NCBI GenBank assembly: GCA_965198005.1
Contig: CBDAOI010000004.1
Location: 128,001 to 192,000 of the forward strand
Direction of reading: 5' to 3'
Length of the DNA stretch: 64,000 bases
Source: Spirochaetia bacterium
GTDB lineage: Bacteria; Spirochaetota; Spirochaetia; SZUA-6; Bin103
In this document: positions 35,636 through 63,116 of the stretch, one piece after another
Layout of the letters: each line of letters opens with the position of its first letter
Position numbering within the stretch: position 1 is the first letter of the stretch
Position numbers and translations under genes: made by a program
The notes under the pieces: model-generated
The model's database searches: none
Seen by the model: only the letters and a program-made list of their open reading frames with translations
What the model was told of the DNA's origin: nothing

Positions 35636-36695
35636 GCTCCAGCCGCACCCCGGTGCCCGCCGGTTGGAGGCTGCAGCGCGCCGTCGCCGGCAGGGTGAGC
35701 ACCAGTTCCAGGCCGGCCGCGCCGTACGCCTCCAGCCCCACCGTCACCGCCCACCCGTTGAAGTTGTGCAGCACCAGGTAGCGGTCGCCGAACGGGTGCG
35801 CGCTCACCCGCGTGGGAGCGCGCAACCCGAAGCCGAACGGCGCCAGCAGCGCCGCGCGCAGGTCGGCCAGAGGCAGCAACCCGGGCGGTGGAGCGGGGCC
35901 GCCGCCGGCGAACGCGGGGTCCAGGTCGGTGCGGCTCAACTGGATGCCCAGCACGCGGGCGGCCATGCGCACGTCGCCCAGGTACTTCATCGAGAGGTCC
36001 CAGCCGGCGTCGTCCGCCAGCGCCTCCCACGCCGCGCGCGCGCCGCGGACCGGGCGCAGCCGATCGTGCGCGTCGTAGGGGTCGCGCACGCCGCCGAAGT
36101 CGACCACCGCGGGATAGTCGACGCTGGCTTCGATCACGTACACGTTGGGTCGCTCCAGGAACGCCGGATCCAGCGTGGCGGCGAGCCCGTCGGTCACCAG
36201 CACGGGCAGACTCGAGCCCCGCAGGAAGGCGATCTTGGCCGCGAAGTCGGGGAAGGATCGGGTGTGCAGGGAGAGGAAGAACCCCTCGGCGTCGTCCGGG
36301 AAGTCGCGCGCGGGCCGCAAGGGGATGCCCAGTTGACCGACGTAGTCGAACACGTTGGCGTCGCCGGCGCGCCCGAAGTCCCACGGCTCCGCTCGATTCG
36401 GCCGGGCCGCCACCAGACCGCGCACCGGGTTGGCGCGCACGATGCGGGTGAGCTCCCGGATCGGGCCGGCGTCTCTGAGGATGGCCGGAAACTGGCGGGC
36501 GCCGCCGGGGAACGCCCAGTGGTAGTCCGGACCCAGGCCGCCGTAGGGATGCAGCACCAGCTCGCGCGGCCCGCCGAGCAGGGTCTGGTACGCGGTATCC
36601 AGGGTGTGGGGCGTGTCCTGCAGCGGCATGATCCACGCTCCGCCGAGCCTGCTCCCCGCCAGCTCGTTGATCCAGCCCATCAGGAAGCAGGCGCG
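35630..36695 (-). pseudogene. Fragment of a hypothetical protein, both ends apparently lost
   Basis: Protein-like composition in the middle of ORF 35085..36806; flanked by junctions to unrelated genes. Confidence 0.45.
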
Positions 36696-36696
36696 G

Positions 36697-37074
36697 TAAC
36701 GTGAGCGAAGTCGTACGTGCGGGTCTGCGCCTGCTGGAGGACGAAGAGACGAAACGGCGTGCGTTGCGGGCGGCATTGCTGGCAGGCGAGGCCAGCGGAC
36801 CAGCAATTCCGTTCGACTGGGATGAGTTCATCGCACGCAAGCGGGCTGAGCAACACACCAGTTGAGAGTCCTCTACCGACCGGCCGCGCTCGACGACTTG
36901 GAACAGATCTACGATTTCACGTTCGAAATGTGGGGGCCGGCACAGGCGGAGAACTACCTGGCGCAGCTGCGGTCGGCTGCGGAACGATTGCTGGTGCATC
37001 CGCGCAGTTCGATCGCATGGACATCCGCTCGCGGCTCACCGGCAACGATTGACCGAAGCGACGAGTATCGCTAA
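36697..37074 (+). pseudogene. Second parDE copy: 5'-truncated parD and 3'-disrupted parE
   Basis: Near-identical to 18370-18581; ParE continues IYDFTFEMWGPAQAENYL. Confidence 0.85.
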
Positions 37075-37419
37075 CTCACGCCGTGGACTCGGAGGGCGGC
37101 GCCGTCGATCGGGTCGGCGGCGGCCGAGGCCCGGAGCTGGAGGTCGCGCCCGAGCCGGAGGCTGAGCCGGGGCCGGAGGCGGGGCGCCAAGTGAGGTGAG
37201 CCAGCACCGTCGCTCCGTGCCCCGGGATTGGGGTGCCAGCTACCGTTGGCCGTTGGTCAGTGGGGGAGTAAAGCGCGCCCACCGGCTGGGGAACACATCA
37301 CCGACCGTCGCGACTCACGGGAGCCGGGCACGAGCAGGCTCCAATCGCTCTATCTGATTCCCACCAAACGAAATAAAGTTACCAGCAATACCCGTTCACC
37401 GAGAATTGCTGTACTTCGA

Positions 37420-37559
37420 CGCGGCTGGTTGACCCGGGCTGCAGGTCCGTGCTACGGTCGCACGGTAGAGCCATGAGCTGTCAGATTTCTTCGATGTTTT
37501 TGCCGCGGCTGGTTGATCCGAGTCGCACGTCCGTGGTACGGTCGCACAGTAAAGTCATG
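37420..37559. repeat. Two imperfect 56-bp direct repeats (37420-37475, 37504-37559)
   Basis: cgcggctggttga.ccg.g..gca.gtccgtg.tacggtcgcac.gta.ag.catg. Confidence 0.75.
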
Positions 37560-37869
37560 CACGGCCCCTGTAGGCCCCCACAACAAGTTAGCGCTTATGC
37601 CCCCTGTACCCTTTATAGAGATTAGATAGTTCGCCAGGGACTGCTAGAATCCCAGGCGGGCAAGGCAGCCTACCGGGAGCAACCTTGAGCCCCCCGCGCC
37701 GTAGAGCGCCCGGGGGGGACATGTGCCCCGGTAGGAGTGCCGCGATGGATACCCAGTGAGGAGTAGTGCCAGGTGGGAAGGTGCCAGGAGCACCGGAGCA
37801 CCGGAGCACCAGTACAGGGGTGGAACGACATCGTGGCAGCCGAGCTCCACAATCTCGGGAGGTGACAGG

Positions 37870-39123
37870 ATGTCAACCGAACAGACCGAACAGTGGTTCG
37901 TGGGTATCGATTGGGCGACCAGGCAACATCAGATCTGTGTGCTTGAGGGTGACGGGGAGGTGGTCGCGGAACGGCAGGTGGACCATAGCGGCGCCGGCAT
38001 CGCCGACTTGTGCGCGTGGTTGCACGAGCTATCGGGCGGGCACCCGGAGCGCGTGCACGCGGCGATCGAGATGCCGCATGGCGCGGTGGTCGAGATGCTG
38101 CTGGAGCGGGAGGTGCAGGTGTACGCGATCAATCCCAAGCAGCTGGATCGATTTCGTGACCGGTTTACGGTGGCCGGCGCCAAGGATGACCGGCGCGACG
38201 CGCGGGTGTTGGCAGACTCGCTGCGCACCGACCGCCGCAGCTTTCGTCAGTTGCAGGTGCAGGCACCGCCGGTGATCGAGTTGCGGGAATGGTCGCGCCT
38301 GACTGCCGAGTTGCAGGAGGAACGCAACGGGCTGATCAATCGCATGCGCGAGCAACTGCGCCGCTACTACCCGCAGCTGATCGAGCTGGGCGGTGACCTC
38401 GGCGCGGGCTGGGTTCTGGAGTTGTGGGAGAAGGCGCCGACGCCGGCGGAGGCAGCGCGGGTCCGGAAGGCGTCGGTCGCGGCCATCCTGAAGCGCAACC
38501 GCATCCGGCGCCACGCTGCTGCCGGTGTGCTGGGCATCCTGCGGCAGCAGCCGCTTGAGGTGGGCCGCGGGACGATAGCGGCGGCTACGGCGCACATCGC
38601 GAGCGTGATCGCCCGGCTGAAGCTGGTCGACCAGCAACTCAAACAGGCGCACAGCCGGCTCGACGAACTGCTGGCCGAGATTGTGGCCGACGACGACTCG
38701 GGTGAACCAGAAGAGCGGCGTGACGCCGTCATCCTGCGTTCGATGCCCGGTGTCGGTCGGATCGTGCTCGCCACGCTGCTGGCCGAAGCCTCACAGCCTC
38801 TGGCTGAGCGAGACTACCACAGGTTGCGGATTCTGACCGGGGTGGCGCCGGTGACCAAGCGGTCGGGGAAGAGTTGCCAGGTGAGCATGCGCCGGGCCTG
38901 CAACCAGCGGCTGAGCAACGCGATGTATCACTGGGCGCGGGTGGCGATCCAGCACGATCCGGTGAGTCGGGAGCGGTATGCGGCGCTGCGCGCGCGCGGG
39001 CAGCGCCATGGCCGGGCGCTGCGTACGGTCGCGGACCGGTTGCTCGCGGTGGCGTGCGCGATGCTGCGTGACCGCACGCAGTTTGATCCACAGCACCGGG
39101 CTCCGCGACCGCTGACCGCCTGA
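37870..39123 (+). mobile_element. IS110-family transposase/recombinase, intact ORF
   Basis: N-terminal DEDD RuvC-like motifs (GIDWA, AIE, KDDRRDA); C-terminal SMPGVG, GVAPVTKRSGK. Confidence 0.93.
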
Positions 39124-39290
39124 TGGGGGAAGGTGGGCCGGGCGCGGGAAGCGTCGTCCCCGCCGCTCACGGGAGCGACCGGAGACCCGGCAGGAGGCGC
39201 GGTGAGACTGCTCGGCGCGAACCGGCACCGGTGCACGGAAATCCGAACTTTTGACCTGTTACGTAACGGAGCGTAACGGGAAGGAGAGCA

Positions 39291-39578
39291 GTGGCGGTAA
39301 GTAACGCGGAACGACAACGGCGCTATCGAGAGCGCCGCAAGGCAGCGCAGCCCCGGGTGCAGTACCGCAGGCCGCAAGACCGCAGGTCCCGACCGCAGCG
39401 CTGGCAGGATGCGGTGGGCACCCTGCTCGACCTCCAGGGTGAGTATCAAGCGTGGCTCGACCACTTGCCCGACAGTCTCCAGGAGTCCGCGGTCGCACAG
39501 CGGCTGGAGGCGATGTGCGGGCTTGATCTTGCCGAACTGGAGAGCGTCGAGCCGCCGCGCGGGTATGGGCGCGAATGA
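39291..39578 (+). CDS. Small conserved-looking hypothetical protein directly downstream of IS110
   Basis: RBS aggag; SNAERQRRYRER basic helix; PPRGYGRE C-terminus. Confidence 0.65.
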   Translation: MAVSNAERQRRYRERRKAAQPRVQYRRPQDRRSRPQRWQDAVGTLLDLQGEYQAWLDHLPDSLQESAVAQRLEAMCGLDLAELESVEPPRGYGRE

Positions 39579-40021
39579 GGGGGGCTCTGCAGCCCGCACC
39601 TCGCGTCGTTCCTGACCTGCAAGCGCTGATCAGTGCCGGTCTCGGATTGATGTTCGAGGTGGCACACGGGAGCCGGGTGGCGGACCGCGCGGCGTCAGCG
39701 GTGTCAGCGGTGGTAGGAAACGGCTTTGACGGGCATTTTGCGGGATTCCGGGGGGTACTGGGTTTGGAAGGCCGTCAGGGGGCCGCTATGAGGCCGACGC
39801 GGACGCCGCCGAGCGGCGGCTGCCGGCCAATCGGCGGTGAAACGGGATCGTGGCGGCGACTCGACCGGCAGCCGCGCGGCAGGCAGCCGGCTTGGAACAG
39901 CAGCCCGACGACCGCACGCGGCGGGGCCTTCGATTGCTGGTCCAGGTGAGAGCCGGGGTGAGCGGTGTCGGCACGGCTTTGACGGGCATTTTGCGGGATT
40001 CCGGGGGGTACCCTGGGGTAT

Positions 40022-41937
40022 GAGCGCCAGGCTAACTGGCATATGACAGAGGGTGAAAGTCCCTCGGAACGAAGGAGCAGCCAATCCACGTTTCTCCGCG
40101 AGCCGTGCGTTGGCACCTGCGAGGGTGCAGGCGAAGCGTCGGCAGCGGTGCGTGCGGGCAGAGTTATGGAGCGCCGCAAAATACGACATCTGGAGTGCCG
40201 AGACTCTGTACTCGGTCGAAGGCAACACCGGTCGAGCCAGTATGGTGAGGATCGACCGGGCTCCACGGCGTCGAAGAACTCAGGCACGTACGTACGTCAT
40301 ATACCGGGACCTGGGAGGTCTTCGGGTCGTCCCGGCGAGTCGTCGCCGGGACCGCGGAGGGAAGGCGTGAGGCTGGACCAAAGATGAACGACCCGAAGGA
40401 GTCGGACATGGGCATAGTAGCGGCGAAGCCGGCGAACAAGGGAGCGCAAGCGACTGCGGAGACGGTGGAGCGAAGGCCCATGACCAACGGGAATTCGCAA
40501 GGTCAAAGCACGGGCCGGACGCAGAGTCGGGCAACCGTGACACAGGCGGCCGAGCGGATACGGCAATTCGTAAAGAGAGAACCGCAGGAGAAACTCACTG
40601 CGCTGCTGCACCACGTGACGCCGGAAGCGCTGCGGGTGGCCTATTACGCGCTGAAGCGTGAAGCGGCCCCGGGGGTGGACGGGATGACGTGGCGGGAGTA
40701 CGAGACGGGGTTGGAAGTGCGCTTGCACGACCTGCACCGGCGAGTACACACAGGAGCGTACCGAGCGACCCCGGTACGGCGGGTCAACATCGACAAGCCG
40801 GACGGAGGCACACGACCGCTGGGGGTGGCCGCGCTGGAGGACAAGATCGTCCAGAAGGCCGTGGTGGATGTGATCCTGACACCGATCTATGAGGAGGAAT
40901 TTCTCGGGATCAGCTATGGGTTTCGACCGGGGCGCGGGGCACACGATGCGTTGGACGCACTGGCCTACGCCATCGAACGGCGCAAAGTGAACTGGATATT
41001 GGACGCGGACATTCGCGGCTACTTCGATTCGATCTCGCGGGACTGGTTGATCAGATTCCTGGAGCATCGGATTGGAGATCGGCGGGTGCTGCGGCTGATA
41101 AAGAAGTGGCTGCGCGCTGGGGTACTGGAAGAAGGCCGACAGATCGACGCGGGGCGGGGTACAGCGCAAGGGTCGGTGATTTCACCGATGCTCGCGAATA
41201 TATACTTGCACTACGTGTTGGACCTGTGGGTCACCAAGAAGTGGCGGCCGCAGGAGGCGCGCGGAGACATGATCATAGTGCGCTACGCAGATGACTATGT
41301 CGCCGGGTTCGAGCATCGTGACGATGCGGAACGCTTCCTGCGGGAACTGAAGGAGCGATTCAGAGGCTTCGAGCTGGAACTGAACGCCGACAAGACCCGA
41401 CTCCTCGAGTTTGGACGGTATGCCGAAAGGAACCGCCGAGCACGTGGGGAAGGGCGACCGGAGACGTTCGACTTTCTGGGTTTCACGCATTATTGCAGGA
41501 AGGACAGGAAAGGACGCTTCGGGCTGGGGCGGAAGCCAATTCGGAAGCGGATGAATCGTACGCTGAAGAGGATCAAGATCGAGCTCCGCAGACGAATGCA
41601 TGATGACGTGATGGAAACCGGGCGCTGGCTGGGACGGGTACTGCGCGGATGGCTCAACTACTACGCGGTACCCACCAGCTACCGCTATCTGCACCGATTC
41701 GTGTGGCGTCTGCGAGGAATCTGGGTAAAGATTCTACGCCGGAGGTCCCAGAAGGACCGATTCTCCTGGGCTTGGATGCTGGCGATCAGCATCAAGCTGT
41801 GGCCCCAACCCCGAATCGTACACTCATGGCCGGACCGGCGATTTGCCGTCAACCACCGAAGGTAGGAGCCGGATGGTTTAACGACCACGTCCGGATCTGT
41901 GCGGGGGGCGCCGGGTAACCGGCGTTCCTACCGCGCC
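40022..41937 (+). mobile_element. Group II intron, copy 1 (1,916 nt; resembles bacterial class E)
   Basis: RT ORF followed by domain V (gagccggatg...cacgtccggatc) and domain VI; ends defined by the empty site at 44541/44542. Confidence 0.92.
40384..41865 (+). CDS. ltrA: Group II intron reverse transcriptase/maturase, no endonuclease domain
   Basis: APGVDG, KPDGGTRPLG, SYGFRPGR, LDADI, QGSVISPMLANIYLH, RYADD, FDFLGFT, LRGWLNYY. Confidence 0.95.
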   Translation: MNDPKESDMGIVAAKPANKGAQATAETVERRPMTNGNSQGQSTGRTQSRATVTQAAERIRQFVKREPQEKLTALLHHVTPEALRVAYYALKREAAPGVDGMTWREYETGLEVRLHDLHRRVHTGAYRATPVRRVNIDKPDGGTRPLGVAALEDKIVQKAVVDVILTPIYEEEFLGISYGFRPGRGAHDALDALAYAIERRKVNWILDADIRGYFDSISRDWLIRFLEHRIGDRRVLRLIKKWLRAGVLEEGRQIDAGRGTAQGSVISPMLANIYLHYVLDLWVTKKWRPQEARGDMIIVRYADDYVAGFEHRDDAERFLRELKERFRGFELELNADKTRLLEFGRYAERNRRARGEGRPETFDFLGFTHYCRKDRKGRFGLGRKPIRKRMNRTLKRIKIELRRRMHDDVMETGRWLGRVLRGWLNYYAVPTSYRYLHRFVWRLRGIWVKILRRRSQKDRFSWAWMLAISIKLWPQPRIVHSWPDRRFAVNHRR

Positions 41938-42286
41938 CTCCCTGGGTTTGGAAGGCCGTCAGGGGGCCGCTATGAGGCCGACGCGGACGCCGAGCGGCCC
42001 GCTGCCGGCCAATCGGCGGTGAATGCCGGCCCTGAACGGGTCCGAGTGCCGGGATCGTCGGCGTAGCGGCGCGCATGCTGGCGCGCGGGCGGCGAACTCG
42101 ACCGGCAGCCGCGCGGCAGGCAGCCGGCTTGGAACAGCAACCCGACGACCGCACGCGGCGGGGCCTTCGATTGCTGGTCCAGGTGGGAGCCGGGGTGGCG
42201 GACCGCGCGGCGTCAGCGGTGTCAGCGGTGGTGGGAAACGGCTTTGACGGGCACTTTGCGGGATTCCGGGGGGTACCCTGGGGTAT

Positions 42287-44202
42287 GAGCGCCAGGCTAA
42301 CTGGCATATGACAGAGGGTGAAAGTCCCTCGGAACGAAGGAGCAGCCAATCCACGTTTCTCCGCGAGCCGTGCGTTGGCACCTGCGAGGGTGCAGGCGAA
42401 GCGTCGGCAGCGGTGCGTGCGGGCAGAGTTATGGAGCGCCGCAAAATACGACATCTGGAGTGCCGAGACTCTGTACTCGGTCGAAGGCAACACCGGTCGA
42501 GCCAGTATGGTGAGGATCGACCGGGCTCCACGGCGTCGAAGAACTCAGGCACGTACGTACGTCATATACCGGGACCTGGGAGGTCTTCGGGTCGTCCCGG
42601 CGAGTCGTCGCCGGGACCGCGGAGGGAAGGCGTGAGGCTGGACCAAAGATGAACGACCCGAAGGAGTCGGACATGGGCATAGTAGCGGCGAAGCCGGCGA
42701 ACAAGGGAGCGCAAGCGACTGCGGAGACGGTGGAGCGAAGGCCCATGACCAACGGGAATTCGCAAGGTCAAAGCACGGGCCGGACGCAGAGTCGGGCAAC
42801 CGTGACACAGGCGGCCGAGCGGATACGGCAATTCGTAAAGAGAGAACCGCAGGAGAAACTCACTGCGCTGCTGCACCACGTGACGCCGGAAGCGCTGCGG
42901 GTGGCCTATTACGCGCTGAAGCGTGAAGCGGCCCCGGGGGTGGACGGGATGACGTGGCGGGAGTACGAGACGGGGTTGGAAGTGCGCTTGCACGACCTGC
43001 ACCGGCGAGTACACACAGGAGCGTACCGAGCGACCCCGGTACGGCGGGTCAACATCGACAAGCCGGACGGAGGCACACGACCGCTGGGGGTGGCCGCGCT
43101 GGAGGACAAGATCGTCCAGAAGGCCGTGGTGGATGTGATCCTGACACCGATCTATGAGGAGGAATTTCTCGGGATCAGCTATGGGTTTCGACCGGGGCGC
43201 GGGGCACACGATGCGTTGGACGCACTGGCCTACGCCATCGAACGGCGCAAAGTGAACTGGATATTGGACGCGGACATTCGCGCCTACTTCGATTCGATCT
43301 CGCGGGACTGGTTGATCAGATTCCTGGAGCATCGGATTGGAGATCGGCGGGTGCTGCGGCTGATAAAGAAGTGGCTGCGCGCTGGGGTACTGGAAGAAGG
43401 CCGACAGATCGACGCGGGGCGGGGTACAGCGCAAGGGTCGGTGATTTCACCGATGCTCGCGAATATATACTTGCACTACGTGTTGGACCTGTGGGTCACC
43501 AAGAAGTGGCGGCCGCAGGAGGCGCGCGGAGACATGATCATAGTGCGCTACGCAGATGACTATGTCGCCGGGTTTGAATACCGGGACGATGCGGAACGCT
43601 TCCTGCGGGAACTGAAGGAGCGATTCAGAGGCTTCGAGCTGGAACTGAACGCCGACAAGACCCGACTCCTCGAGTTTGGACGGTATGCCGAAAGGAACCG
43701 CCGAGCACGTGGGGAAGGGCGACCGGAGACGTTCGACTTTCTGGGTTTCACGCATTATTGCAGGAAGGACAGGAAAGGACGCTTCGGGCTGGGGCGGAAG
43801 CCAATTCGGAAGCGGATGAATCGTACGCTGAAGAGGATCAAGATCGAGCTCCGCAGACGCATGCATGATGACGTGATGGAAACCGGGCGCTGGCTGGGAC
43901 GGGTACTGCGCGGATGGCTCAACTACTACGCGGTACCCACCAGCTACCGCTACCTGCACCGATTCGTGTGGCGTCTGCGAGGAATCTGGGTAAAGATTCT
44001 ACGCCGGAGGTCCCAGAAGGACCGATTCTCCTGGGCTTGGATGCTGGCGATCAGCATCAAGCTGTGGCCCCAACCCCGAATCGTACACTCATGGCCGGAC
44101 CGGCGATTTGCCGTCAACCACCGAAGGTAGGAGCCGGATGGTTTAACGACCACGTCCGGATCTGTGCGGGGGGCGCCGGGTAACCGGCGTTCCTACCGCG
44201 CC
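42287..44202 (+). mobile_element. Group II intron, copy 2
   Basis: Near-identical to copy 1, offset 2,265 bp. Confidence 0.92.
42649..44130 (+). CDS. ltrA: Group II intron reverse transcriptase/maturase
   Basis: 493 aa; two visible substitutions versus copy 1. Confidence 0.95.
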   Translation: MNDPKESDMGIVAAKPANKGAQATAETVERRPMTNGNSQGQSTGRTQSRATVTQAAERIRQFVKREPQEKLTALLHHVTPEALRVAYYALKREAAPGVDGMTWREYETGLEVRLHDLHRRVHTGAYRATPVRRVNIDKPDGGTRPLGVAALEDKIVQKAVVDVILTPIYEEEFLGISYGFRPGRGAHDALDALAYAIERRKVNWILDADIRAYFDSISRDWLIRFLEHRIGDRRVLRLIKKWLRAGVLEEGRQIDAGRGTAQGSVISPMLANIYLHYVLDLWVTKKWRPQEARGDMIIVRYADDYVAGFEYRDDAERFLRELKERFRGFELELNADKTRLLEFGRYAERNRRARGEGRPETFDFLGFTHYCRKDRKGRFGLGRKPIRKRMNRTLKRIKIELRRRMHDDVMETGRWLGRVLRGWLNYYAVPTSYRYLHRFVWRLRGIWVKILRRRSQKDRFSWAWMLAISIKLWPQPRIVHSWPDRRFAVNHRR

Positions 44203-45269
44203 CTCCCTGGGTTTGGAAGGCCGTCAGGGGGCCGCTATGAGGCCGCGAGCGGCCCGCTGCCGGCCAATCGGCCGTGAATGCCGGCCCTGAACGGGTCCGA
44301 GTGCCGGGATCGTCGGCGTAGCGGCGCGCATGCTGGCGCGCGGGCGGCGAACTCGACCGGCAGCCGCGCGGCAGGCAGCCGGCTTGGAACAGCAACCCGA
44401 CGACCGCACGCGGCGGGGCCTTCGATTGCTGGTCCAGGTGGGAGCCGGGGTGGCGGACCGGGCGGCGTCAGCGGTGTCAGCGGTGGTGGGAAACGGCTTT
44501 GACGGGCATTTTGCGGGATTCCGGGGGGTGCCCTGGGGTATCTCCCTGGGTTTGGAAGGCCGTCAGGGGGCCGCCATGAGGCCGACTCGGACGCCGAGCG
44601 GCCCGCTGCCGGCCAATCGGCCGTGAATGCCGGCCCTGGAGGGGTCCGAGTGCCGAGATCGTCGCCGCGGCGGCGCTCGTGCTGCCGCTCCTGTCCGAGC
44701 AGCCTCGAGCGCCGCGATGGCCGCAGCAACGGCCCATTCCCCCCGCGTGCGGCGACTGACGGAGCAGCGGCTCGACGTTCAAGGAGGTCTGCCGTCGTTA
44801 GCTGTCCTGGAGGTGGCTGCGACCCGACCAGGCTGGGCTGCGGGCGGTGGCGGCGCGGTCAATACGGAGCCAGCGGTGCCGGGAATCGGCGTTGACGGGT
44901 GTTGCCGGGGGTGCCCCAGGCTACCCCCGAGGGGCTGGAAGGCCCTCAGGGGGCCGCTATGAGGCCGCGAGCGGTCCGTTGCCGGCCAATCGGCGGTGAA
45001 TGCCGGCCCTGAACGGGTCCGAGTGCCGGGATCGTCGGCGTAGCGGCGCGCATGCTGCCGCGCGGTCGGCGAACTCGACCGGCAGCGGTGCGGCAGGCAG
45101 AGGCAGCCGGCTTGGAACAGCAACCCGACGACCGCACGCGGCGGGGCCTTCGATTGCTGGTCCAGGTGGGAGTCGGGGTGGCGGACCGCGCGGCGTCAGC
45201 GGTGTCAGCGGTGGTGGGAAACGGCTTTGACGGGCACTTTGCGGGATTCCGGGGGGTACCCTGGGGTAT

Positions 45270-47185
45270 GAGCGCCAGGCTAACTGGCATATGACAGAGG
45301 GTGAAAGTCCCTCGGAACGAAGGAGCAGCCAATCCACGTTTCTCCGCGAGCCGTGCGTTGGCACCTGCGAGGGTGCAGGCGAAGCGTCGGCAGCGGTGCG
45401 TGCGGGCAGAGTTATGGAGCGCCGCAAAATACGACATCTGGAGTGCCGAGATTCTGTACTCGGTCGAAGGCAACACCGGTCGAGCCAGTATGGTGAGGAC
45501 CGACCGGGCTCCACGGCGTCGAAGAACTCAGGCACGTACGTACGTCATATACCGGGACCTGGGAGGTCTTCGGGTCGTCCCGGCGGGTCGTCGCCGGGAC
45601 CGCGGAGGGAAGGCGTGAGGCTGGACCGAAGATGAACGACCCGAAGAAGTCGGACATGGGCATAGTAGCGGCGAAGCCGGCGAACAAGGGAGCGCAAGCG
45701 ACTGCGGAGACGGTGGAGCGAAGGCCCATGACCAACGGGAATTCGCAAGGTCAAAGCACGGGCCGGACGCAGAGTCGGGCAACCGTGACACAGGCGGCCG
45801 AGCGGATACGGCAATTCGTAAAGAGAGAACCGCAGGAGAAACTCACTGCGCTGCTGCACCACGTGACGCCGGAAGCGCTGCAGGTGGCCTATTACGCGCT
45901 GAAGCGCGAAGCGGCCCCGGGGGTGGACGGGATGACGTGGCGGGAGTACGAGACGGGGTTGGAAGTGCGCTTGCACGACCTGCACCGGCGAGTACACACA
46001 GGAGCGTACCGAGCGACCCCGGTACGGCGGGTCAACATCGACAAGCCGGACGGAGGCACACGACCGCTGGGGGTGGCCGCGCTGGAGGACAAGATCGTCC
46101 AGAAGGCCGTGGTGGATGTGATCCTGACACCGATCTATGAGGAGGAATTTCTCGGGATCAGCTATGGGTTTCGACCGGGGCGAGGGGCACACGATGCGTT
46201 GGACGCACTGGCCTACGCCATCGAACGGCGCAAAGTGAACTGGATATTGGACGCGGACATCCGGGCCTACTTCGATTCGATCTCGCGGGACTGGTTGATC
46301 AGATTCCTGGAGCATCGGATTGGAGATCGGCGGGTACTGCGGCTGATAAAGAAGTGGCTGCGCGCTGGGGTACTGGAAGAAGGCCGACAGATCGACGCGG
46401 GGCGGGGTACAGCGCAAGGGTCGGTGATTTCACCGATGCTCGCGAATATCTATCTGCACTACGTGTTGGACCTGTGGGTCACCAAGAAGTGGCGGCCGCA
46501 GGAGGCGCGCGGAGACATGATCATAGTGCGCTACGCAGATGACTACGTTGCCGGGTTTGAATACCGGGACGATGCGGAACGCTTCCTGCGGGAACTGAAG
46601 GAGCGATTCAGAGACTTCGAGCTGGAACTGAACGCCGACAAGACCCGACTCCTCGAGTTTGGACGGTATGCCGAAAGGAACCGCCGAGCACGTGGGGAAG
46701 GGCGACCGGAGACGTTCGACTTTCTGGGCTTCACGCATTATTGCAGGAAGGACAGGAAAGGACGCTTCGGGCTGGGGCGGAAGCCAATTCGGAAGCGGAT
46801 GAATCGTACCCTGAAGAGGATCAAGATCGAGCTCCGCAGACGCATGCATGATGACGTGATGGAAACCGGGCGCTGGCTGGGACGGGTACTGCGCGGATGG
46901 CTCAACTACTACGCGGTACCCACCAGCTACCGCTACCTGCACCGATTCGTGTGGCGTCTGCGAGGAATCTGGGTAAAGATTCTACGCCGGAGGTCCCAGA
47001 AGGACCGATTCTCCTGGGCTTGGATGCTGGCGATCAGCATCAAGCTGTGGCCCCAACCCCGAATCGTACACTCATGGCCGGACCGGCGATTTGCCGTCAA
47101 CCACCGAAGGTAGGAGCCGGATGGTTTAACGACCACGTCCGGATCTGTGCGGGGGGCGCCGGGTAACCGGCGTTCCTACCGCGCC
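45270..47185 (+). mobile_element. Group II intron, copy 3
   Basis: Near-identical to copy 1, offset 5,248 bp. Confidence 0.92.
45632..47113 (+). CDS. ltrA: Group II intron reverse transcriptase/maturase
   Basis: 493 aa, YADD intact. Confidence 0.95.
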   Translation: MNDPKKSDMGIVAAKPANKGAQATAETVERRPMTNGNSQGQSTGRTQSRATVTQAAERIRQFVKREPQEKLTALLHHVTPEALQVAYYALKREAAPGVDGMTWREYETGLEVRLHDLHRRVHTGAYRATPVRRVNIDKPDGGTRPLGVAALEDKIVQKAVVDVILTPIYEEEFLGISYGFRPGRGAHDALDALAYAIERRKVNWILDADIRAYFDSISRDWLIRFLEHRIGDRRVLRLIKKWLRAGVLEEGRQIDAGRGTAQGSVISPMLANIYLHYVLDLWVTKKWRPQEARGDMIIVRYADDYVAGFEYRDDAERFLRELKERFRDFELELNADKTRLLEFGRYAERNRRARGEGRPETFDFLGFTHYCRKDRKGRFGLGRKPIRKRMNRTLKRIKIELRRRMHDDVMETGRWLGRVLRGWLNYYAVPTSYRYLHRFVWRLRGIWVKILRRRSQKDRFSWAWMLAISIKLWPQPRIVHSWPDRRFAVNHRR

Positions 47186-47394
47186 CTCCCCGGGTTTGGA
47201 AGGCCGTCAGGGGGCCGCTATGAGGCCGACTCGGACGCCGAGCGCCCCGCCGCCGGCCAATCGGCCGTGAATGCCGGCCCTGAACGGGTCCGAGTGCCGA
47301 GATCGTCGCCGCGGCGGCGCTCGTGCTGCCGCTTCTGTCCGAGCAGCCTCGAACTCAACCGGCGAGCGGCTCGCGGTTGCACCTCCGGAGCGCC

Positions 47395-47997
47395 GCGACG
47401 GCCAAGCCGGAGGGTCACACCAGCCTGTACCAGGATATCGACGGGCTGCGCCGCGGTCGGCTGCTGGACCACCGCTGCACCATCGACGCGACCGGGGACC
47501 GGCATGAATACGAGTGGGTTACCGGGGTGCCGCTGAACGGCAACCCCCGCAGTCCCAAGATCAACTTCGTGCACTACCGCATCGTACGTGCGGGCACGCC
47601 CACCTATCAAAACGCCTGGGTGACCGACTTGGTGCCCAGCGCTGGCAGCGTGGCGCGGATCGTGCGTGCGGGACGAGCACGCTGGAAGATCGAGAACGAG
47701 GGGTCGATACGCTGAAGCGCTGAAGCGCTGAAGAACCAGGGCTATCACCTGGAGCACAACTTCGGCCACGGTGACAAGTACTTGTCGGAGGCGTTCTTCG
47801 TGCCGGGCCTGCTGGCCTGTTTCATGCACCGGATATTCGAGCTGGTGGACGGTCTGTATCAGCAGGTGCGGGCTGGGTTCGGGTCGCGCCGGGAGTTCTG
47901 GGGCGCGATTCGCGCCACGTTCCGGCTATTCCTGTTCCGGTCGTGGGACCAGGTGCTGGTGCGGATGAATTCGCCGCCGCAGCCGCTGTCCGGGTAG
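47395..47997 (+). pseudogene. C-terminal fragment of a DDE transposase (ISNCY-like), frameshifted
   Basis: AWVTDL...GRARWKIENEG...LKNQGYHLEHNFGHG. Confidence 0.75.
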
Positions 47998-48241
47998 CCG
48001 CTCCCTGGGGAACTGAACCTGCTCCCTGAACGATCCCTGACTGGGGCTGCGGCGCAGGTGTGCCGGCGGCGCGCGGGCAACCGGCCCCGAAGGGCCGATC
48101 GCCGCACCGCGCCAGCCCGCGGCATCGGCCGAGCGGCGGTGGCTGACGGTGGTCAGGTCATCGCACGGGGCTGCATGACGGTGGCTAAATACGTCACCTG
48201 CAATCAGTTACAGAATTTCTGCCGGGTCGGGCCGTGGGTGC

Positions 48242-48535
48242 ATTCACTCGGTGGGCCAACAGGTGGGCATGGTCGCGTTTCACACTCGGAGGGCTTGAGC
48301 TTATGACAGGGCTTGCGATCTCGCCCTCGAAACTTTTCTGTAACCTTTCGGCGCCCAATGTTGCCATATCTGTTTACGATGCACCTCTGCCCCCCGTTCT
48401 CCGAGAATCGCTGTCGCGCCGTGCGGGTGCTTGCCTCCCACGGGAAGAATGGGTATATTGAAGTCGTGTATTCACTTGGTGGGCCAACAGGTGGGCATGG
48501 TCGCGTTTCACACTCGGAGGGCTTGAGCTTATGAC
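48242..48535. repeat. 66-bp direct repeat pair (48242-48307, 48470-48535), also at 62212-62277 and 62440-62505
   Basis: attcact(c/t)ggtgggccaacaggtgggcatggtcgcgtttcacactcggagggcttgagcttatgac. Confidence 0.9.
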
Positions 48536-48917
48536 CCTCTGCCCCTCTACCAGCGGTTCCCCGAGAATCGCTGCTGTTTGCCTGTTGACTTGTTTGCCGC
48601 AGGCGTGCCATACTAAAAGCCTCGGGTTTGAACGGATGCAAAAGATGGGTGATAACACTACTCAGCACTGCCACCGGTTAGCGGCAACGCAGCCGGCGCG
48701 TCCTATCCTCGCCTACCCCCCCCCCCCCCCCCCCCCCCCCCCCGGCGGGAGCTCCAAGAATTCGTTTCGCGGGGGTTGAAAAATGGTGAGGAGTCCCCCG
48801 CGTGGCGTTGTGACGCAGGTCCCGACGTCCGCCGAGCGGTGGGCGTTTGCATGATGGGGCGCGCACGCGGGTCCCATCTTACGTCAGCCATCCGGCAGGG
48901 CACCCTGTGCCCCAAGA

Positions 48918-49082
48918 AGGAGGTGAAGATGATACTGAAAGAACCGCACGCGCGCGCGGCGTGAGCCCGGGTGAACCCGGTGAGTCACACGCCGCGCGCT
49001 TGAGGAATCTGACTCAGACTGGCCGTCCGCGTTGCGGGCGCGAGAGTAGCCAGGGAGCGGCAGGCCGCTACGCAATACTCTC
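48918..49082 (+). promoter_or_regulatory. Leader class I, copy B: RBS, MILKEPHARAA short ORF (48929..48964) and structured RNA
   Basis: Three homologous copies, each directly 5' of a binding-protein gene or its remnant. Confidence 0.72.
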
Positions 49083-49091
49083 AAGATCAAA

Positions 49092-50906
49092 ATGATGGAC
49101 AAAACAATGAAAATCTTATTTAGAATGACCTTCGCGGTCGCGTTGGTCATGGTGCTGACCGCAACCGGCCTCTGGGCCGGCGCTGCCAGCGAAGAGGAGC
49201 CGGCGGCCGCCGCCGACAAGAAGTATGTAACCGACCCCACTACCGGCAAGGTGGTGAGCGCGCCAGAGTATGGCGGGACACTCACCTATGCCAAGATCGG
49301 CATGCCAACTTCGAGTACTGACGCTTGGACCGATGGTGGCGTTGTGGGATATCTCTTCCTCAGTCACACTCTAGAGAAGCTAGCCATCGGGAACTGGGCG
49401 ATAGATCGAGAAGAACATGGCTGGAATACAACGGCCGTACCTCTATGGAGCTTAAATGGGGCGCTGGCGGAAAGTTGGGAGATTTCCCCAGATGGACTCA
49501 CCTATACCTTCAAAATCCGACAGGGCGTCTACTGGCATGATAAGGCACCGATGAACGGTCGGGAGCTAACTGCCGATGATATCGTATATAACTATCACCG
49601 TTATTTGGGTCTGGGCAGTGGCTTCACCGAACCTAGCCCCCATTTTGGGGGTCTCGTCGTTCTGCCATTCGAATCGATAACGGCCACCGACAAATATACG
49701 GTTGTCATGAAGCTGGAGGAGCCACGCCTCTTTGCGATGGGTGATATCGTCGACTACTATATGGGTTATATGTATCCCCCGGAGGTAATCAAGGAACACG
49801 GAGACGCTAAGGACTGGAGGAACTTGGTCGGCACCGGGCCCTATATGATAACTGACTTGGTCAAGGGCAGCTCGGTGACCTATACCAAGAATCCTGACTA
49901 CTGGGGCTACGACGAAAAATACCCGGAGAACCGCCTGCCCTATATTGACCAGTTAGAGTTCCTGGTTATGCCAGAGGAGGCGACACGCCTGGCGGCACTG
50001 CGCGCGGGTACGCTTGATGTCATGGGTCGCAACGGCAACGCTTCAATACAGTCTATCGACGTACTAGAGAGTCTCCAGCGGACCAACCCCGAAATCGTGT
50101 TGTGGAAGTTTCCTTGGCGGTCGGATACTTCTTTTCATCTTAACGTGAGTAAGCCGCCCTTTGACGACATCAATGTGCGCAGGGCAATGCAGATGGCACT
50201 AGACCTTGGGACAATTAACGCTACCTACTGGAAGGGTTATGGATCTACCAGACCTCAGGGGACAGTTGCCGATGATGCGAAAGGGTGGGTCCTCCCATTT
50301 GAAGAGTGGCCGGAAGCGGTCAAGAAAGTCCATACCTATGACCCGACAGGTGCAGAAGCGTTGCTTGATGCGGCTGGATATAGACGTGGCGCCGACGGCA
50401 CTAGATTCAAGACCCTGGTCAACGTCTATGAGGCGCACGATGCGACCTTTGCAGAACTAGCCGCTGCATACTGGGGTGACATTGGCGTTGATGTCGAGAT
50501 TCAGATAACTCCAGGAGCTGAGTTTGTCGCCGCGAAAAAGGGCGGACTTTATGAAATGCTCTCTGGGACAACAGCCATCAGGGTGAGTGCTCCGTCACCA
50601 AACCAATATTGGTCGGGCAATCCACATAACCCTTCCTATGTCAAGGATCCGAATTATGACGCCATGTACGACGCCTGGCAGGAAGCTGACACTATTGAGG
50701 AGGCGCAGAGGTGGATGAAAGAGGCAAATATGTACGTGGAAGAAAGGCACTGGAGCCTATGGGGTGGCGAACTCCCACAGTGGAACGTGAGCCAGCCGTG
50801 GGTCATGGGTTATAACGGTGAAGTCTGGTTGGGAATGGGTCAACAAGATAACTTCTTCGCCCGCCTCTGGATTGATAGTGAGCTGAAGGAAGCAATGGGT
50901 CATTAG
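49092..50906 (+). CDS. ABC transporter family-5 solute-binding protein, intact
   Basis: Family motifs as above; exact start among nearby ATGs uncertain. Confidence 0.93.
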   Translation: MMDKTMKILFRMTFAVALVMVLTATGLWAGAASEEEPAAAADKKYVTDPTTGKVVSAPEYGGTLTYAKIGMPTSSTDAWTDGGVVGYLFLSHTLEKLAIGNWAIDREEHGWNTTAVPLWSLNGALAESWEISPDGLTYTFKIRQGVYWHDKAPMNGRELTADDIVYNYHRYLGLGSGFTEPSPHFGGLVVLPFESITATDKYTVVMKLEEPRLFAMGDIVDYYMGYMYPPEVIKEHGDAKDWRNLVGTGPYMITDLVKGSSVTYTKNPDYWGYDEKYPENRLPYIDQLEFLVMPEEATRLAALRAGTLDVMGRNGNASIQSIDVLESLQRTNPEIVLWKFPWRSDTSFHLNVSKPPFDDINVRRAMQMALDLGTINATYWKGYGSTRPQGTVADDAKGWVLPFEEWPEAVKKVHTYDPTGAEALLDAAGYRRGADGTRFKTLVNVYEAHDATFAELAAAYWGDIGVDVEIQITPGAEFVAAKKGGLYEMLSGTTAIRVSAPSPNQYWSGNPHNPSYVKDPNYDAMYDAWQEADTIEEAQRWMKEANMYVEERHWSLWGGELPQWNVSQPWVMGYNGEVWLGMGQQDNFFARLWIDSELKEAMGH

Positions 50907-60386: not shown

Positions 60387-61166
60387 CCGGCTTGTCGATG
60401 TTGACCCGCCGTACCGGGGTCGCTCGGTACGCTCCTGTGTGTACTCGCCGGTGCAGGTCGTGCAAACGCACTTCCAACCCCGTCTCGTACTCCCGCCACG
60501 TCATCCCGTCCACCCCCGGGGCCGCTTCACGCTTCAGCGCGTAATAGGCCACCCGCAGCGCTTCCGGCGTCACGTGGTGCAGCAGCGCAGTGAGTTTCTC
60601 CTGCGGTTCTCTCTTTACGAATTGCCGTGTCCGCTCGGCCGCCTGTGTCACGGTTGCCCGACTCTGCGTCCGGCCCGTGCTTTGGCCTTGCGAATTCCCG
60701 TTGGTCATGGGCCTTCGCTCCACCGTCTCCGCAGTCGCTTGCGCTCCCTTGTTCGCCGGCTTCGCCGCTACTATGCCCATGTCCGACTCCTTCGGGTCGT
60801 TCATCTTCGGTCCAGCCTCACGCCTTCCCTCCGCGGTCCCGGCGACGACTCGCCGGGACGACCCGAAGACCTCCCAGGTCCCGGTATATGACGTACGTAC
60901 GTGCCTGAGTTCTTCGACGCCGTGGAGCCCGGTCGATCCTCACCATACTGGCTCGACCGGTGTTGCCTTCGACCGAGTACAGAATCTCGGCACTCCAGAT
61001 GTCGTATTTTGCGGCGCTCCATAACTCTGCCCGCACGCACCGCTGCCGACGCTTCGCCTGCACCCTCGCAGGTGCCAACGCACGGCTCGCGGAGAAACGT
61101 GGATTGGCTGCTCCTTCGTTCCAAGGGACTTTCACCCTCTGTCATATGCCAGTTAGCCTGGCGCTC
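60387..61166 (-). mobile_element. Group II intron copy 4, inverted and 3'-truncated (5' 780 nt)
   Basis: Reverse complement of 40022-~40801; RT ends after NIDKP. Confidence 0.92.
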
Positions 61167-61380
61167 GTACCCCAGGGCTACCCCCGAGGGGCTGGAAGGC
61201 CCTCAGGGGGCCGCTATGAGGCCGCGAGCGGTCCGTTGCCGGCCAATCGGCGGTGAATGCCGGCCCTGAACGGGTCCGAGTGCCGAGATCGTCGCCGCGG
61301 CGGCGCTCGTGCTGCCGCTTCTGTCCGAGCAGCCTCGAACTCAACCGGCGAGCGGCTCGCGGTTGCACCTCCGGAGCGCC

Positions 61381-61967
61381 GCGACGGCCAAGCCGGAGGG
61401 TCACACCAGCCTGTACCAGGATATCGACGGGCTGCGCCGCGGTCGGCTGCTGGACCACCGCTGCACCATCGACGCGACCGGGGACCGGCATGAATACGAG
61501 TGGGTTACCGGGGTGCCGCTGAACAGCAAGCCCCGCAGTCCCCAGATCAACTTCGTGCACTACCGCATCGTACGGGCCGGCACGACCACCTATCAAAACG
61601 CCTGGGTGACCGACTTGGTGCCCACCGCTGGCAGCGTCGCGCGGATCGTGCGTGCGGGACGAGCACGCTGGAAGATCGAGAACGAGGGGTCGATACGCTG
61701 AAGAACCAGGGCTATCACCTGGAGCACAACTTCGGCCACGGTGACAAGTACTTGTCGGAGGCGTTCTTCGTGCCGGGCCTGCTGGCCTGTTTCATGCACC
61801 GGATATTCGAGCTGGTGGACGGTCTGTATCAGCAGGTGCGGGCTGGGTTCGGGTCGCGCCGGGAGTTCTGGGGCGCGATTCGCGCCACGTTCCGGCTATT
61901 CCTGTTCCGGTCGTGGGACCAGGTGCTGGTGCGGATGAATTCGCCGCCGCAGCCGCTGTCCGGGTAG
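61381..61967 (+). pseudogene. Second copy of the ISNCY-like transposase fragment
   Basis: Part of the 1.5-kb duplication. Confidence 0.75.
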
Positions 61968-63116
61968 CCGCTCCCTGGGGAACTGAACCTGCTCCCTGAA
62001 CGATCCCTGACTGGGGCTGCGGCGCAGGTGTGCCGGCCGCGCGCGGGCAACCGGCCCCGAAGGGCCGATCGCCGCACCGCGCCAGCCCGCGGCATCGGCC
62101 GAGCGGCGGTGGCTGACGGTGGTCAGGTCATCGCACGGGGCTGCATGACGGTGGCTAAATACGTCACCTGCAATCAGTTACAGAATTTCTCCCGGGTCGG
62201 GCCGTGGGTGCATTCACTCGGTGGGCCAACAGGTGGGCATGGTCGCGTTTCACACTCGGAGGGCTTGAGCTTATGACAGGGCTTGCGATCTCGCCCTCGA
62301 AACTTTTCTGTAACCTTTCGGCGCCCAATGTTGCCATATCTGTTTACGATGCACCTCTGCCCCCCGTTCTCCGAGAATCGCTGTCGCGCCGTGCGGGTGC
62401 TTGCCTCCCACGGGAAGAATGGGTATATTGAAGTCGTGTATTCACTCGGTGGGCCAACAGGTGGGCATGGTCGCGTTTCACACTCGGAGGGCTTGAGCTT
62501 ATGACCCTCTGCCCCTCTACCAGCGGTTCCCCGAGAATCGCTGCTGTTTGCCTGTTGACTTGTTTGCCGCAGGGGTGCCATACTAAAAGCCTCGGGTTTG
62601 AACGGATGCAGAAGATGGGTGATAACACTACTCAGCACTGCCACCGGTTAGCGGCAACGCAGCCGGCGCGTCCTATCCTCGCCTACCCCCCCCGACGGGA
62701 GCTCCAAGAATTCGTTTCGCGGGGGTTGAAAAATGGTGAGGAGTCCCCCCCCCCCCCCCCCCCCGCAGCTTTTTCGGACCGATAAGCAACTAACCGCTCC
62801 GGCTGCTCGCCCTTTACGCGACCCCGCGCGCGCCGTCGCCTTCACCACCGCAGTAGCTCGCACTGTCGGTCGCGCCGGCTCGGTCCCGCGCCGAACCGAC
62901 CTGCGGGCCGCCCGCGCCCTTCCCGGCGACCGCAACCGTCCCGGCTTCCCGCCCGCGACTCCCCCGGTCGGCGTCTGCATGATCGGGCGCCCACGCGCTG
63001 CACGCGCTGTGCGCTGCGCACCCCAGCTTACGACTATTTCCGGCCCGAGACAGGCGGCCTGCATCAGGCATCTGACAGGGCCGCCTGTGGCCCAAGATCG
63101 CAAGATCAAGCTAACC

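Follow-up and report, generated by a model that had tools for sequence, protein, structure and literature searches.

A multi-copy group II intron in the repeated, palindromic tail of an IS110-family composite element from a Spirochaetia bacterium

The 64,000-nt stretch of DNA analysed here (the window) comes from a Spirochaetia bacterium (assembly GCA_965198005.1, contig CBDAOI010000004.1, positions 128,001 to 192,000; G000:C4:128001-192000 in the nomenclature used below, where G000 is the source genome and C1-C4 are contigs) and contains, in the array region under study at 39.6-47.4 kb, copies of a group II intron set between ~340-bp direct repeats; coordinates without a contig label are window positions. 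Introns and repeats lie in an IS110-family composite with nested insertions (37600-48799, + strand), whose left end, (CCCCC)TGTACCCTTTATAGAG, precedes an IS110-family transposase gene (37756-39123, +; 455 aa; PF01548 (DEDD_Tnp_IS110) 2e-34, PF02371 (Transposase_20) 3e-16, NF033542 164.7 bits at a cutoff of 140) and orf95 (39291-39578, +), which encodes a conserved 95-aa hypothetical protein. There follow, all on the + strand, a partial unit with an apex-deleted junction at 39758 and, up to the first type-A site, a short unit at 39759-40021 (together 39668-40021); intron copy 1 (40022-41937); a 349-nt unit (41938-42286); intron copy 2 (42287-44202); a unit that ends at an empty type-A site (44203-44537); a variant (V) unit (44538-44924); a 345-nt unit (44925-45269); intron copy 3 (45270-47185); and the right half of a unit with its tail (47186-47399), which ends abruptly at 47400. 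Type A denotes a target site on the strand of the unit and type B a site of the variant junction that lies on the other strand; the V unit carries an empty one on the - strand, GGGGCAC^CCCC (caret, insertion point).

Comparison of the empty site GGGGTAT^CTCCC (44537^44538, ending in CCCTGGGGTAT) with the filled arrangement GGGGTAT^GAGCG...CGCGCC^CTCCC fixes both intron boundaries to the base and gives an insert of exactly 1916 nt, the same in all three window introns. In relatives the intron ends at the equivalent place with CGCGAA or CGCGAT. A putative domain VI helix of the present intron, GGGGCGCCGG/CCGGCGUUCC, read by eye, has its bulged A 7 nt before the end. Rfam family RF02005 (group-II-D1D4-6) matches over its full model (1-225) at four places (+ strand, 40056, 42321 and 45304; - strand, 61132) with 164-170 bits (gathering threshold 49; 169.5 bits for copy 1); a 3'-truncated intron (nt 1-780) occupies a type-B site at 60387-61166 on the - strand. 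Outside the open reading frame (ORF) for the protein that the intron encodes (IEP; 40384-41865, 42649-44130 and 45632-47113 in copies 1, 2 and 3) the ribozyme is small, with 362 nt on the 5' side and 72 nt on the 3' side. The 493-aa IEP (TIGR04416, 351 bits at a cutoff of 300; RVT_1, 4e-35) has only reverse transcriptase (RT) and maturase matches, over residues 82-454, and none to an HNH/endonuclease (En) domain in Pfam or NCBIfam; as in the En-less proteins of classes A, C, D, E, F and their relatives, no DNA-binding/endonuclease (HNH) region follows domain X. Its best PDB relatives are group II RTs (2.5e-42); class IIC RTs score 1e-42, a class IIB RT 2e-35 and LtrA 2.5e-33, values that lie too close together to decide the class of the intron.

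The genome holds 15 full-length introns by BLAST (11 on C4, three on C3 and one on C1), which are 98.6-100% identical, with 0-36 pairwise differences and three of them identical to each other, in addition to at least nine truncated or fragmented copies. The terminal dinucleotide is CC in 12 full copies and AC in the other three. By a string test the 493-codon ORF is intact in 11 of the 15, and it is also intact in window copy 3; it is broken in the copy at C4 266663. Variable sites are distributed as a mosaic over all intron copies, from which it follows that recombination or conversion blurs their genealogy. Chimeric flanks, in which the 5' exon is non-repeat DNA and the 3' exon repeat DNA, or vice versa, occur at C3:813795, C4:582942/581828 and C3:153305-155221 and fit recombination between intron copies of different loci. 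Other group II intron lineages are present at C3:29297-29940, C4:466366 and C1:64024, with weaker matches at C4:410286-411347 and C3:977887-978830; the 5' regions of these extra lineages begin with GTGCG and are 82-93% identical to that of the main intron, their ORF regions ~68-70%.

Twelve of the 15 full copies lie inside the repeat junction, which bears out the proposal, made in a first-pass annotation of this DNA, that it is the preferred target of the intron; eight occupy type-A and four type-B sites, and three lie in non-repeat DNA. Type-A flanks read ...GGGGGGT(A/G)CCCTGGGGTAT before the intron and CTCCCTGGGTTTGG after it, and type-B flanks ...CTCGGGGGTA(A)GCCTGGGGTAC and CCCCTGCAACACCC; the two share ~25 nt around a quasi-palindrome, GGGGGT..CC.GGGGTAY^C.CCC. 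The three non-repeat 5' exons end in CCTGGGTAC, TCTGGGTGC or GGGGGTGC and have only GGGT(A/G)C, within CTGGGT(A/G)C or GGGGTGC, in common with the repeat sites. What all these exons offer is a match to exon-binding site 1 (EBS1), the sequence GUACUC at intron nt 187-192 (40208-40213 in copy 1), which can pair with the intron-binding site (IBS1) GGGUAC and, through G-U wobble, with GGGUAU and GGGUGC.

In an alignment of the 5' regions of intron lineages (A1), complementarity to the exon recurs at this one aligned position in the main intron and six other lineages: UGGUAUG faces exons ending in CAUGCCA or CGUACCA (L001/L003), UGUGGAU faces AUCCACG and UUCACG (L007 and L010), UCAGCGA faces UCGCUGG (L006), CCGUAU faces AUGCGG (L033), UGCUGC faces GCAGUG in a second lineage of the source genome (G000 C3_29940), and the match is partial in L029. 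Moreover, the unit junction of the congener G003, GGAGTAC^C, is a perfect Watson-Crick match to GUACUC. Targeting is explained by ordinary EBS1-IBS1 recognition, with a pairing that covaries across seven related intron lineages. Relatives also have, ~20 nt upstream of EBS1, an apparent EBS2, a loop whose sequence complements the exon stretch immediately 5' of IBS1. A scan for intron-exon complementarity beyond EBS1 in the main intron gave nothing in the EBS2 loop; a lone perfect 7-mer, between intron nt 153-159 and exon positions -32 to -26 of type-A sites only, was set aside as being, by estimate, about what chance would give.

The junction is an imperfect palindrome (44494-44573) with cores CGGCGTTGACGGG, GGGGGTACCC and GGAAGGCCCTCAG.GGGCCGC. 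Its inverted symmetry is conserved at the sequence level, as a DNA palindrome: among 17 diverse junctions from the source genome and three congeners (alignment A2), 83% of cells are paired, a share that drops to 37-51% if the 3' partner is shifted. RNA structure, on the other hand, is unsupported. The top strand does fold better than the bottom strand, as the first-pass annotation had it (-49.2 vs -32.3 kcal/mol as RNA), but neither beats dinucleotide-shuffled sequences (z = -0.79 and -0.28, respectively), 49 of 200 shuffles match the top-strand fold, z is -0.57 for the A-type palindrome as DNA, and the long hairpin is gone from the minimum free energy structure once 130 nt of context are included. 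Compensatory change on both sides is found at one of 30 hairpin pairs across the 17 copies, the G of ccgtcagg pairs in just two of them, and a covariation check with RNAalifold gave 23 pairs, one of them compensatory, and a covariation term of -0.57 kcal/mol. Nor does the unit behave as a structured RNA family, with no Rfam match above chance at E<=5; the transposon and the uninterrupted units, searched at the gathering threshold and at E<=5, gave only chance-level rows.

These data bear directly on whether the palindrome, folded in single-stranded DNA, provides, in place of sequence beyond IBS1, the specificity that EBS1 alone lacks, much as class IIC introns use terminators and attC sites. 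Such structure-assisted targeting would account for the retained symmetry, for the strong local hairpin that ends 13-14 nt before the type-B site, for the z of about -2.2 of the variant junction as DNA on both strands, for the absence of an exon match in the EBS2 loop, and for three non-repeat CCTGGGGTAYC sites in the favoured orientation that are all empty. It sits poorly, however, with an A-type fold that is no better than shuffles, with the near absence of compensatory changes, with the G003 version of the junction (74% identical), in which the long hairpin does not form (z = -0.31), with the position of IBS1 in a stem arm, outside the loop, with the three full copies at palindrome-free sites, and with the apparent EBS2-IBS2 pairing of relatives, which is unlike class IIC. 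We therefore regard guidance by the hairpin as unlikely; the earlier view of the unit as a landing pad is right in outline, while the hairpin is not shown to guide the intron.

Which of the two sites is filled follows the orientation of the composite. Over C4 0-2.08 Mb and most of C3 the cumulative GC skew climbs, over C2 it declines, and on C1 it changes direction at ~100 kb; by local skew, computed over +-150 kb, 14 of the 15 full copies lie on the G-rich strand (binomial p=0.001), and the lone exception has a local skew of -0.02%. Among repeat sites, counting full copies, 11 filled sites are in the favoured and one in the unfavoured orientation, as against four and 12 empty sites, respectively (Fisher p=6e-4), with all ten empty B sites in the unfavoured orientation. 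In one orientation of the composite A is filled and B empty (the window, C4 683193 and C1 206586), and in the opposite orientation B is filled and A empty (C4 1380871 and 1652225).

Since A-versus-B filling follows composite orientation relative to GC skew, passenger copying cannot produce the pattern, and the orientation rule together with the ectopic sites requires repeated homing genome-wide. The alternative that most copies are not independent homing events, a single insertion having spread as unit and intron were duplicated in tandem and the composite transposed or was itself duplicated, seems quite improbable, even if some observations invite it: many filled sites have near-identical flanks, a block of five variants (columns 1290-1299) is private to copies 2 and 3, copy 2 has copy 1 as its nearest relative (8 differences) and copy 3 has copy 2 (19 differences), and one segment is duplicated within the window (47195-48799 vs 61181-62749). 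Against it, copy 1 differs less from distant copies (5 differences, also its distance from the commonest sequence) than from copy 2 (8) or copy 3 (27), the most diverged of the three with 30 differences from the commonest sequence; flanking units diverge by 4-18% and introns by at most 1.9%; empty and filled composites coexist; and three copies lie in unrelated DNA.

The repeat itself does not depend on the intron. A unit query matched 11 of 40 related genomes (12 of 41 with G000), strongly in four of ten congeners: G001 has units 87-93% identical and the same order of insertion sequence (IS), orf95, units and tail as the source genome, G003 has units 74% identical in arrays at three loci (Tandem Repeats Finder, 342 nt x 3.6 copies, 95% matches), and G004 and G005 have partial unit matches. 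An intron search of five congeners found a full copy in none of G001, G003, G004, G005 and G010, with fragments in G001, G003 and G005 and no match in G004 and G010. Units and arrays in congeners that lack a full intron indicate that the repeat, tandem habit included, is older than the intron burst and independent of it; this, and the dependence of A-or-B occupancy on orientation, speak against the earlier suggestion that the unit is coupled to the RT or co-amplified with the intron. The nearest foreign IEPs, 64-66% identical, are in metagenome-assembled genomes (MAGs) of Dehalococcoidia. The nearest foreign intron (L001-L005 and L031, Dehalococcoidia MAG) is itself multi-copy, and five of its six copies have one identical 5' flank with a small hairpin (GGGGGCGAGTATCCCCC), which suggests that there, too, it lies in a repeat or other mobile element.

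Within the window, direct-repeat families place the unit at 39759-40021, 41938-42286, 44203-44541, 44542-44924 and 44925-45269, with partial copies at 39668-39758, from 47186 onward and from 61170 onward, so that the recurrence first reported from the sequence stands, as do the three filled junctions (introns at 40022, 42287 and 45270) and the loss of the apex at 39758, where ~15 nt are gone. One of two junctions described as empty, 44537^44538, is an exact empty site; the other belongs to the diverged 383-nt variant unit and has its site on the opposite strand, at ~44910/44911 as read from the sequence (a BLAST split put the junction at 44913/44914), with GGGGCAC in place of GGGGTAC. Unit lengths of 339, 349, 383 and 345 nt (340-342 in a congener) include no multiple of three, which fits a non-coding unit. 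Tandem Repeats Finder reported no array within 39500-47500 because the adjoining uninterrupted units (339-nt A, 383-nt V and 345-nt) are too dissimilar. A conserved TTGACGGG considered as a -35 box was dropped, since a scan of 39100-40030 found no promoter; the same scan returned no terminator.

Three near-identical 1.9-kb inserts within 7 kb assemble poorly, and the public Logan contigs of four runs are too short to span the array, the joints found in one DNA run having sides of just 22-32 nt, inside repeated DNA. Yet it is very improbable that the array, or its count of filled units, is an artefact of assembly, given another array elsewhere in this genome (at C1 19.9-21.2 kb, with three A junctions and one V junction), arrays in independently assembled congeners (G003 at three loci, and G001), and 8-27 differences among the three window introns. 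Parts of 36000-39700 are present in 21 of 22 listed public runs (nine studies), and Logan contigs of two RNA libraries cover pieces of the transposase, orf95, the intron ORF and the unit, a coverage that does not by itself show transcription, splicing or the array. A ~1.6-kb segmental duplication (47190-48800 vs 61181-62800, 96-100% identical) spans the unit tail, the foreign element fragment described below and the right-end sequence; this second version (61170-62749, repeating the right part of the composite, 47195-48799) adjoins the truncated, inverted intron at 60387-61166, which suggests rearrangement via intron copies.

Nearly all of the ~30 unit junction copies in the genome are joined to remnants of the composite, of which there are about a dozen copies, mostly degraded, with the layout IS110-family transposase, 95-aa ORF, one or more units and terminal segment. 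The left end at 37600/37605 is common to nine copies whose left flanks differ, and of 15 copies examined 12 have the right end, ...AATGGTGAGGAGT(CCCCC), with poly-C and then flanks that differ behind it. In keeping with the IS110 family, whose members insert site-specifically, lack terminal inverted repeats and share a core between ends and target, both ends abut CCCCC or poly-C (nine left and 12 right junctions compared). Uninterrupted poly-C paralogs of the insertion points were found; in the C1 copy, whose 6.5 kb correspond to the ~3.3-kb composite, one intron and a 1.3-kb insertion with a DDE_Tnp_1 match, the joined left and right flanks rebuild a poly-C-containing sequence that is uninterrupted in seven paralogs. 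All 100-nt tiles of 37401-49300 are repeated in the genome except those at 39801 and 39901 (one copy each). We conclude that the A and B sites lie in a ~3.3-kb composite seated in poly-C tracts. It probably moves as one piece, with the reservation that two adjacent insertions in one tract would look alike. The repeat, first seen as an undescribed element, indeed has no Rfam match; it is the tail of an IS110-family composite, not free-standing.

In the window, the right-end-like sequence ...AATGGTGAGGAGT(CCCCC) lies at 48744-48799, behind a tract of 28 C (48716-48743), and we infer that it belongs to the same insertion as the left end at 37600. The unit tail ends at 47400 because it is cut there by a fragment of another multi-copy element, probably the interior of a transposase gene (47400-48413, +), at least 12 other copies of which continue upstream past the breakpoint. 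Full copies of that element have a weak N-terminal DDE_Tnp_1_assoc match (24.4 bits, below the 32.3 cutoff), and the window ORF has no Pfam match.

Taken as a whole, these observations are best explained, with a probability of roughly three in four, by homing of an En-less intron, through EBS1-IBS1 pairing, into the tail of an IS110-family composite, where the site on the G-rich strand is filled. In this explanation, the ~340-bp unit would be part of the non-coding 3' tail of the ~3.3-kb composite in poly-C tracts, and its number would expand locally; a recently active 1916-nt intron would home to a short stretch of the quasi-palindromic junction between units, recognized by pairing of EBS1 5'-GUACUC with IBS1 5'-GGGUAC, GGGUAU or GGGUGC and the C that comes next. 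The near-palindromic form of the junction would create two usable sites, A on the strand of the unit and B on the other strand of the variant junction, and the one that is filled lies on the G-rich strand, presumably the lagging-strand template. The intron may reverse-splice into transient single-stranded DNA and be primed by nascent DNA, as RmInt1 does, a replication-fork mechanism suggested by analogy with that intron. The arrangement is a commonplace instance of a mobile element nested in another, and the mechanism is of a known type, EBS1-IBS1 homing with strand bias; the apparent link of the intron to a "hairpin repeat" arises from its nesting in the IS110 composite.

Several points weigh against this account. 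IBS1 and the following C are too short for the observed preference, so that a further determinant must exist: GGGTAYC occurs 964 times in the genome and uninterrupted CTGGGGTAYC 34 times, the three favoured CCTGGGGTAYC sites outside the repeat are empty, and the loop equivalent to EBS2 (AAAAUACGACAUC) fits neither A nor B exons. The GC skew by which orientation is judged is weak (1-3%), and it is about zero around one full copy and the C1 array; and four of nine truncated copies are in the unfavoured orientation. The right end in the window may belong to a separate remnant, and, given the mosaic copies and the shared private block, some local duplication or gene conversion may have occurred within the array.

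The closest parallel in behaviour is RmInt1, a class D intron of Sinorhizobium meliloti that, according to PMC1802570 and PMC8914252, homes into ISRm2011-2 and prefers the lagging-strand template. Shared with it are an En-less IEP, multiple copies, a homing site within an IS, a strand bias that here is presumably for the lagging-strand template, and ectopic IBS-like sites; here, in contrast, the host is an IS110-family composite, the site lies in a repeated non-coding tail, sites on opposite strands are both used, and an EBS2-IBS2 match is lacking at the main sites. Class IIC introns, which according to PMC1702495 and PMC3753933 lack EBS2, have a short EBS1 and insert after the stem-loop of a terminator or attC site, resemble the present one in the target at or beside an inverted repeat, in the En-less IEP and in the type-B site behind a strong hairpin. 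They differ from it in that EBS1-IBS1 here comprises 6-7 bp, relatives have an exon-pairing EBS2 loop, type-A insertion takes place inside the palindrome near its apex, not behind it, the hairpin is energetically ordinary, and 39100-40030 holds no terminator-like site; EBS1/EBS2 loops in relatives, a small ribozyme and an En-less IEP exclude class IIC by its defining features. Small ribozymes, IIB-like EBS1/EBS2 loops and En-less IEPs recall classes E and F as described in PMC3753933, where class E is marked by an alpha' at the stem-loop terminus in DId3 and a 5-nt domain V loop; the 5-nt loop of classes IIE and IIF is not evident here, the domain V loop having 4 or 6 nt by eye. The intron is compatible with small IIB-like lineages of E, F or D type as characterized in PMC3753933 and PMC3552965.

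A tentative and rather doubtful extension of these comparisons is that a non-IIC, En-less intron has given up EBS2-IBS2 pairing and relies instead on the quasi-palindrome GGGGGT(A/G)-CC(T/A)GGG-TAC^CCCC in single-stranded DNA, an "ambidextrous" site that would serve in either orientation of the composite relative to the replication fork, with one of the two junction variants presenting a target on the lagging-strand template, and be multiplied by tandem units. Whatever supplies the additional specificity, the genome is a clean natural record of the spread of an En-less group II intron, with 15 near-identical copies whose occupancy tracks the strand, and its filled and empty targets in both orientations make it possible to test the lagging-strand model inexpensively in an organism other than Sinorhizobium. 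Less is understood of the host element, with its IS110 composite, widespread orf95 and tandem palindromic units, which may be worth closer study.

For the host element, the nearest counterpart is ISPpu9, an IS110 element of Pseudomonas putida with a downstream non-coding module, ssr9, that also occurs apart from the transposase (PMC12288879). Both have an IS110-family transposase followed by an extra non-coding module, and ssr9 is separable, as the module of orf95 and units may be; the module here differs in having a 95-aa ORF and ~340-bp tandem units, and the target is poly-C, not a repetitive extragenic palindromic (REP) sequence. IS110 members insert site-specifically in repeats, and two of nine group II intron copies of P. 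putida KT2440 are REP-associated (PMC1525189). Compared with REP sequences and bacterial interspersed mosaic elements, short extragenic palindromes of 20-40 nt in hundreds of copies, the unit is different, at ~340 nt and with ~30 junction copies.

The conserved product of orf95 is basic at its N-terminus, helical in its body and closes with PPRG(F/Y)GR(D/E). Homologs number 372 at E<=0.001, and 120 listed ones are nearly all 95 aa long; with a mean column identity of 82% and invariant basic N-terminal residues and terminal PPRG(F/Y)GR(D/E), orf95 is a real gene. It has no Pfam or NCBIfam domain, and Atlas clusters are named only "hypothetical protein"; its AlphaFold2 model (pLDDT 82) is all helical and has no match in the PDB by Foldseek at E<=0.001. 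In the source genome and G001 orf95 stands behind IS110-type transposase genes, and a palindromic junction always lies within 180-300 nt after it, in either orientation. In G005 the gene ahead of orf95 is what we take, by eye, to be the C-terminus of an IS3-type transposase; orf95 behind a non-IS110 gene suggests that the module of orf95 and palindrome may be separable.

In the transposase leader (37605-37755), GGGGGGGAC and CCGGTAGGAGTG (37660-37740) resemble, by eye, the right-end complement and sequence together with the core (GGTGAGGAGT-CCCCC), and might be candidate guide segments of a bridge RNA; the leader has no Rfam match. Upstream of it, 37392-37604 comprises two tandem ~100-nt repeats (CGCGGCTGGTTGA...GGTCGCAC(A/G)GTA(A/G)AG(C/T)CATG) of a family that has 13-25 genome copies and ends at the poly-C tract. 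Long poly-C tracts are the insertion point of the composite; those of up to 28 C (48716-48743 and the C1-C4 sites) precede a conserved ACTTTTTCRAACCGAGAAACAACTAACCGCTC motif with 41 genome matches. On the right, the SBP_bac_5 solute-binding protein gene (49092-50906), together with a leader of ~200 nt, is one of a very large group of paralogs, with 53-85 genome matches at >=80% identity for 100-nt tiles of 48900-50000, and the poly-C tracts into which the IS110 composite inserts stand ahead of these leaders.

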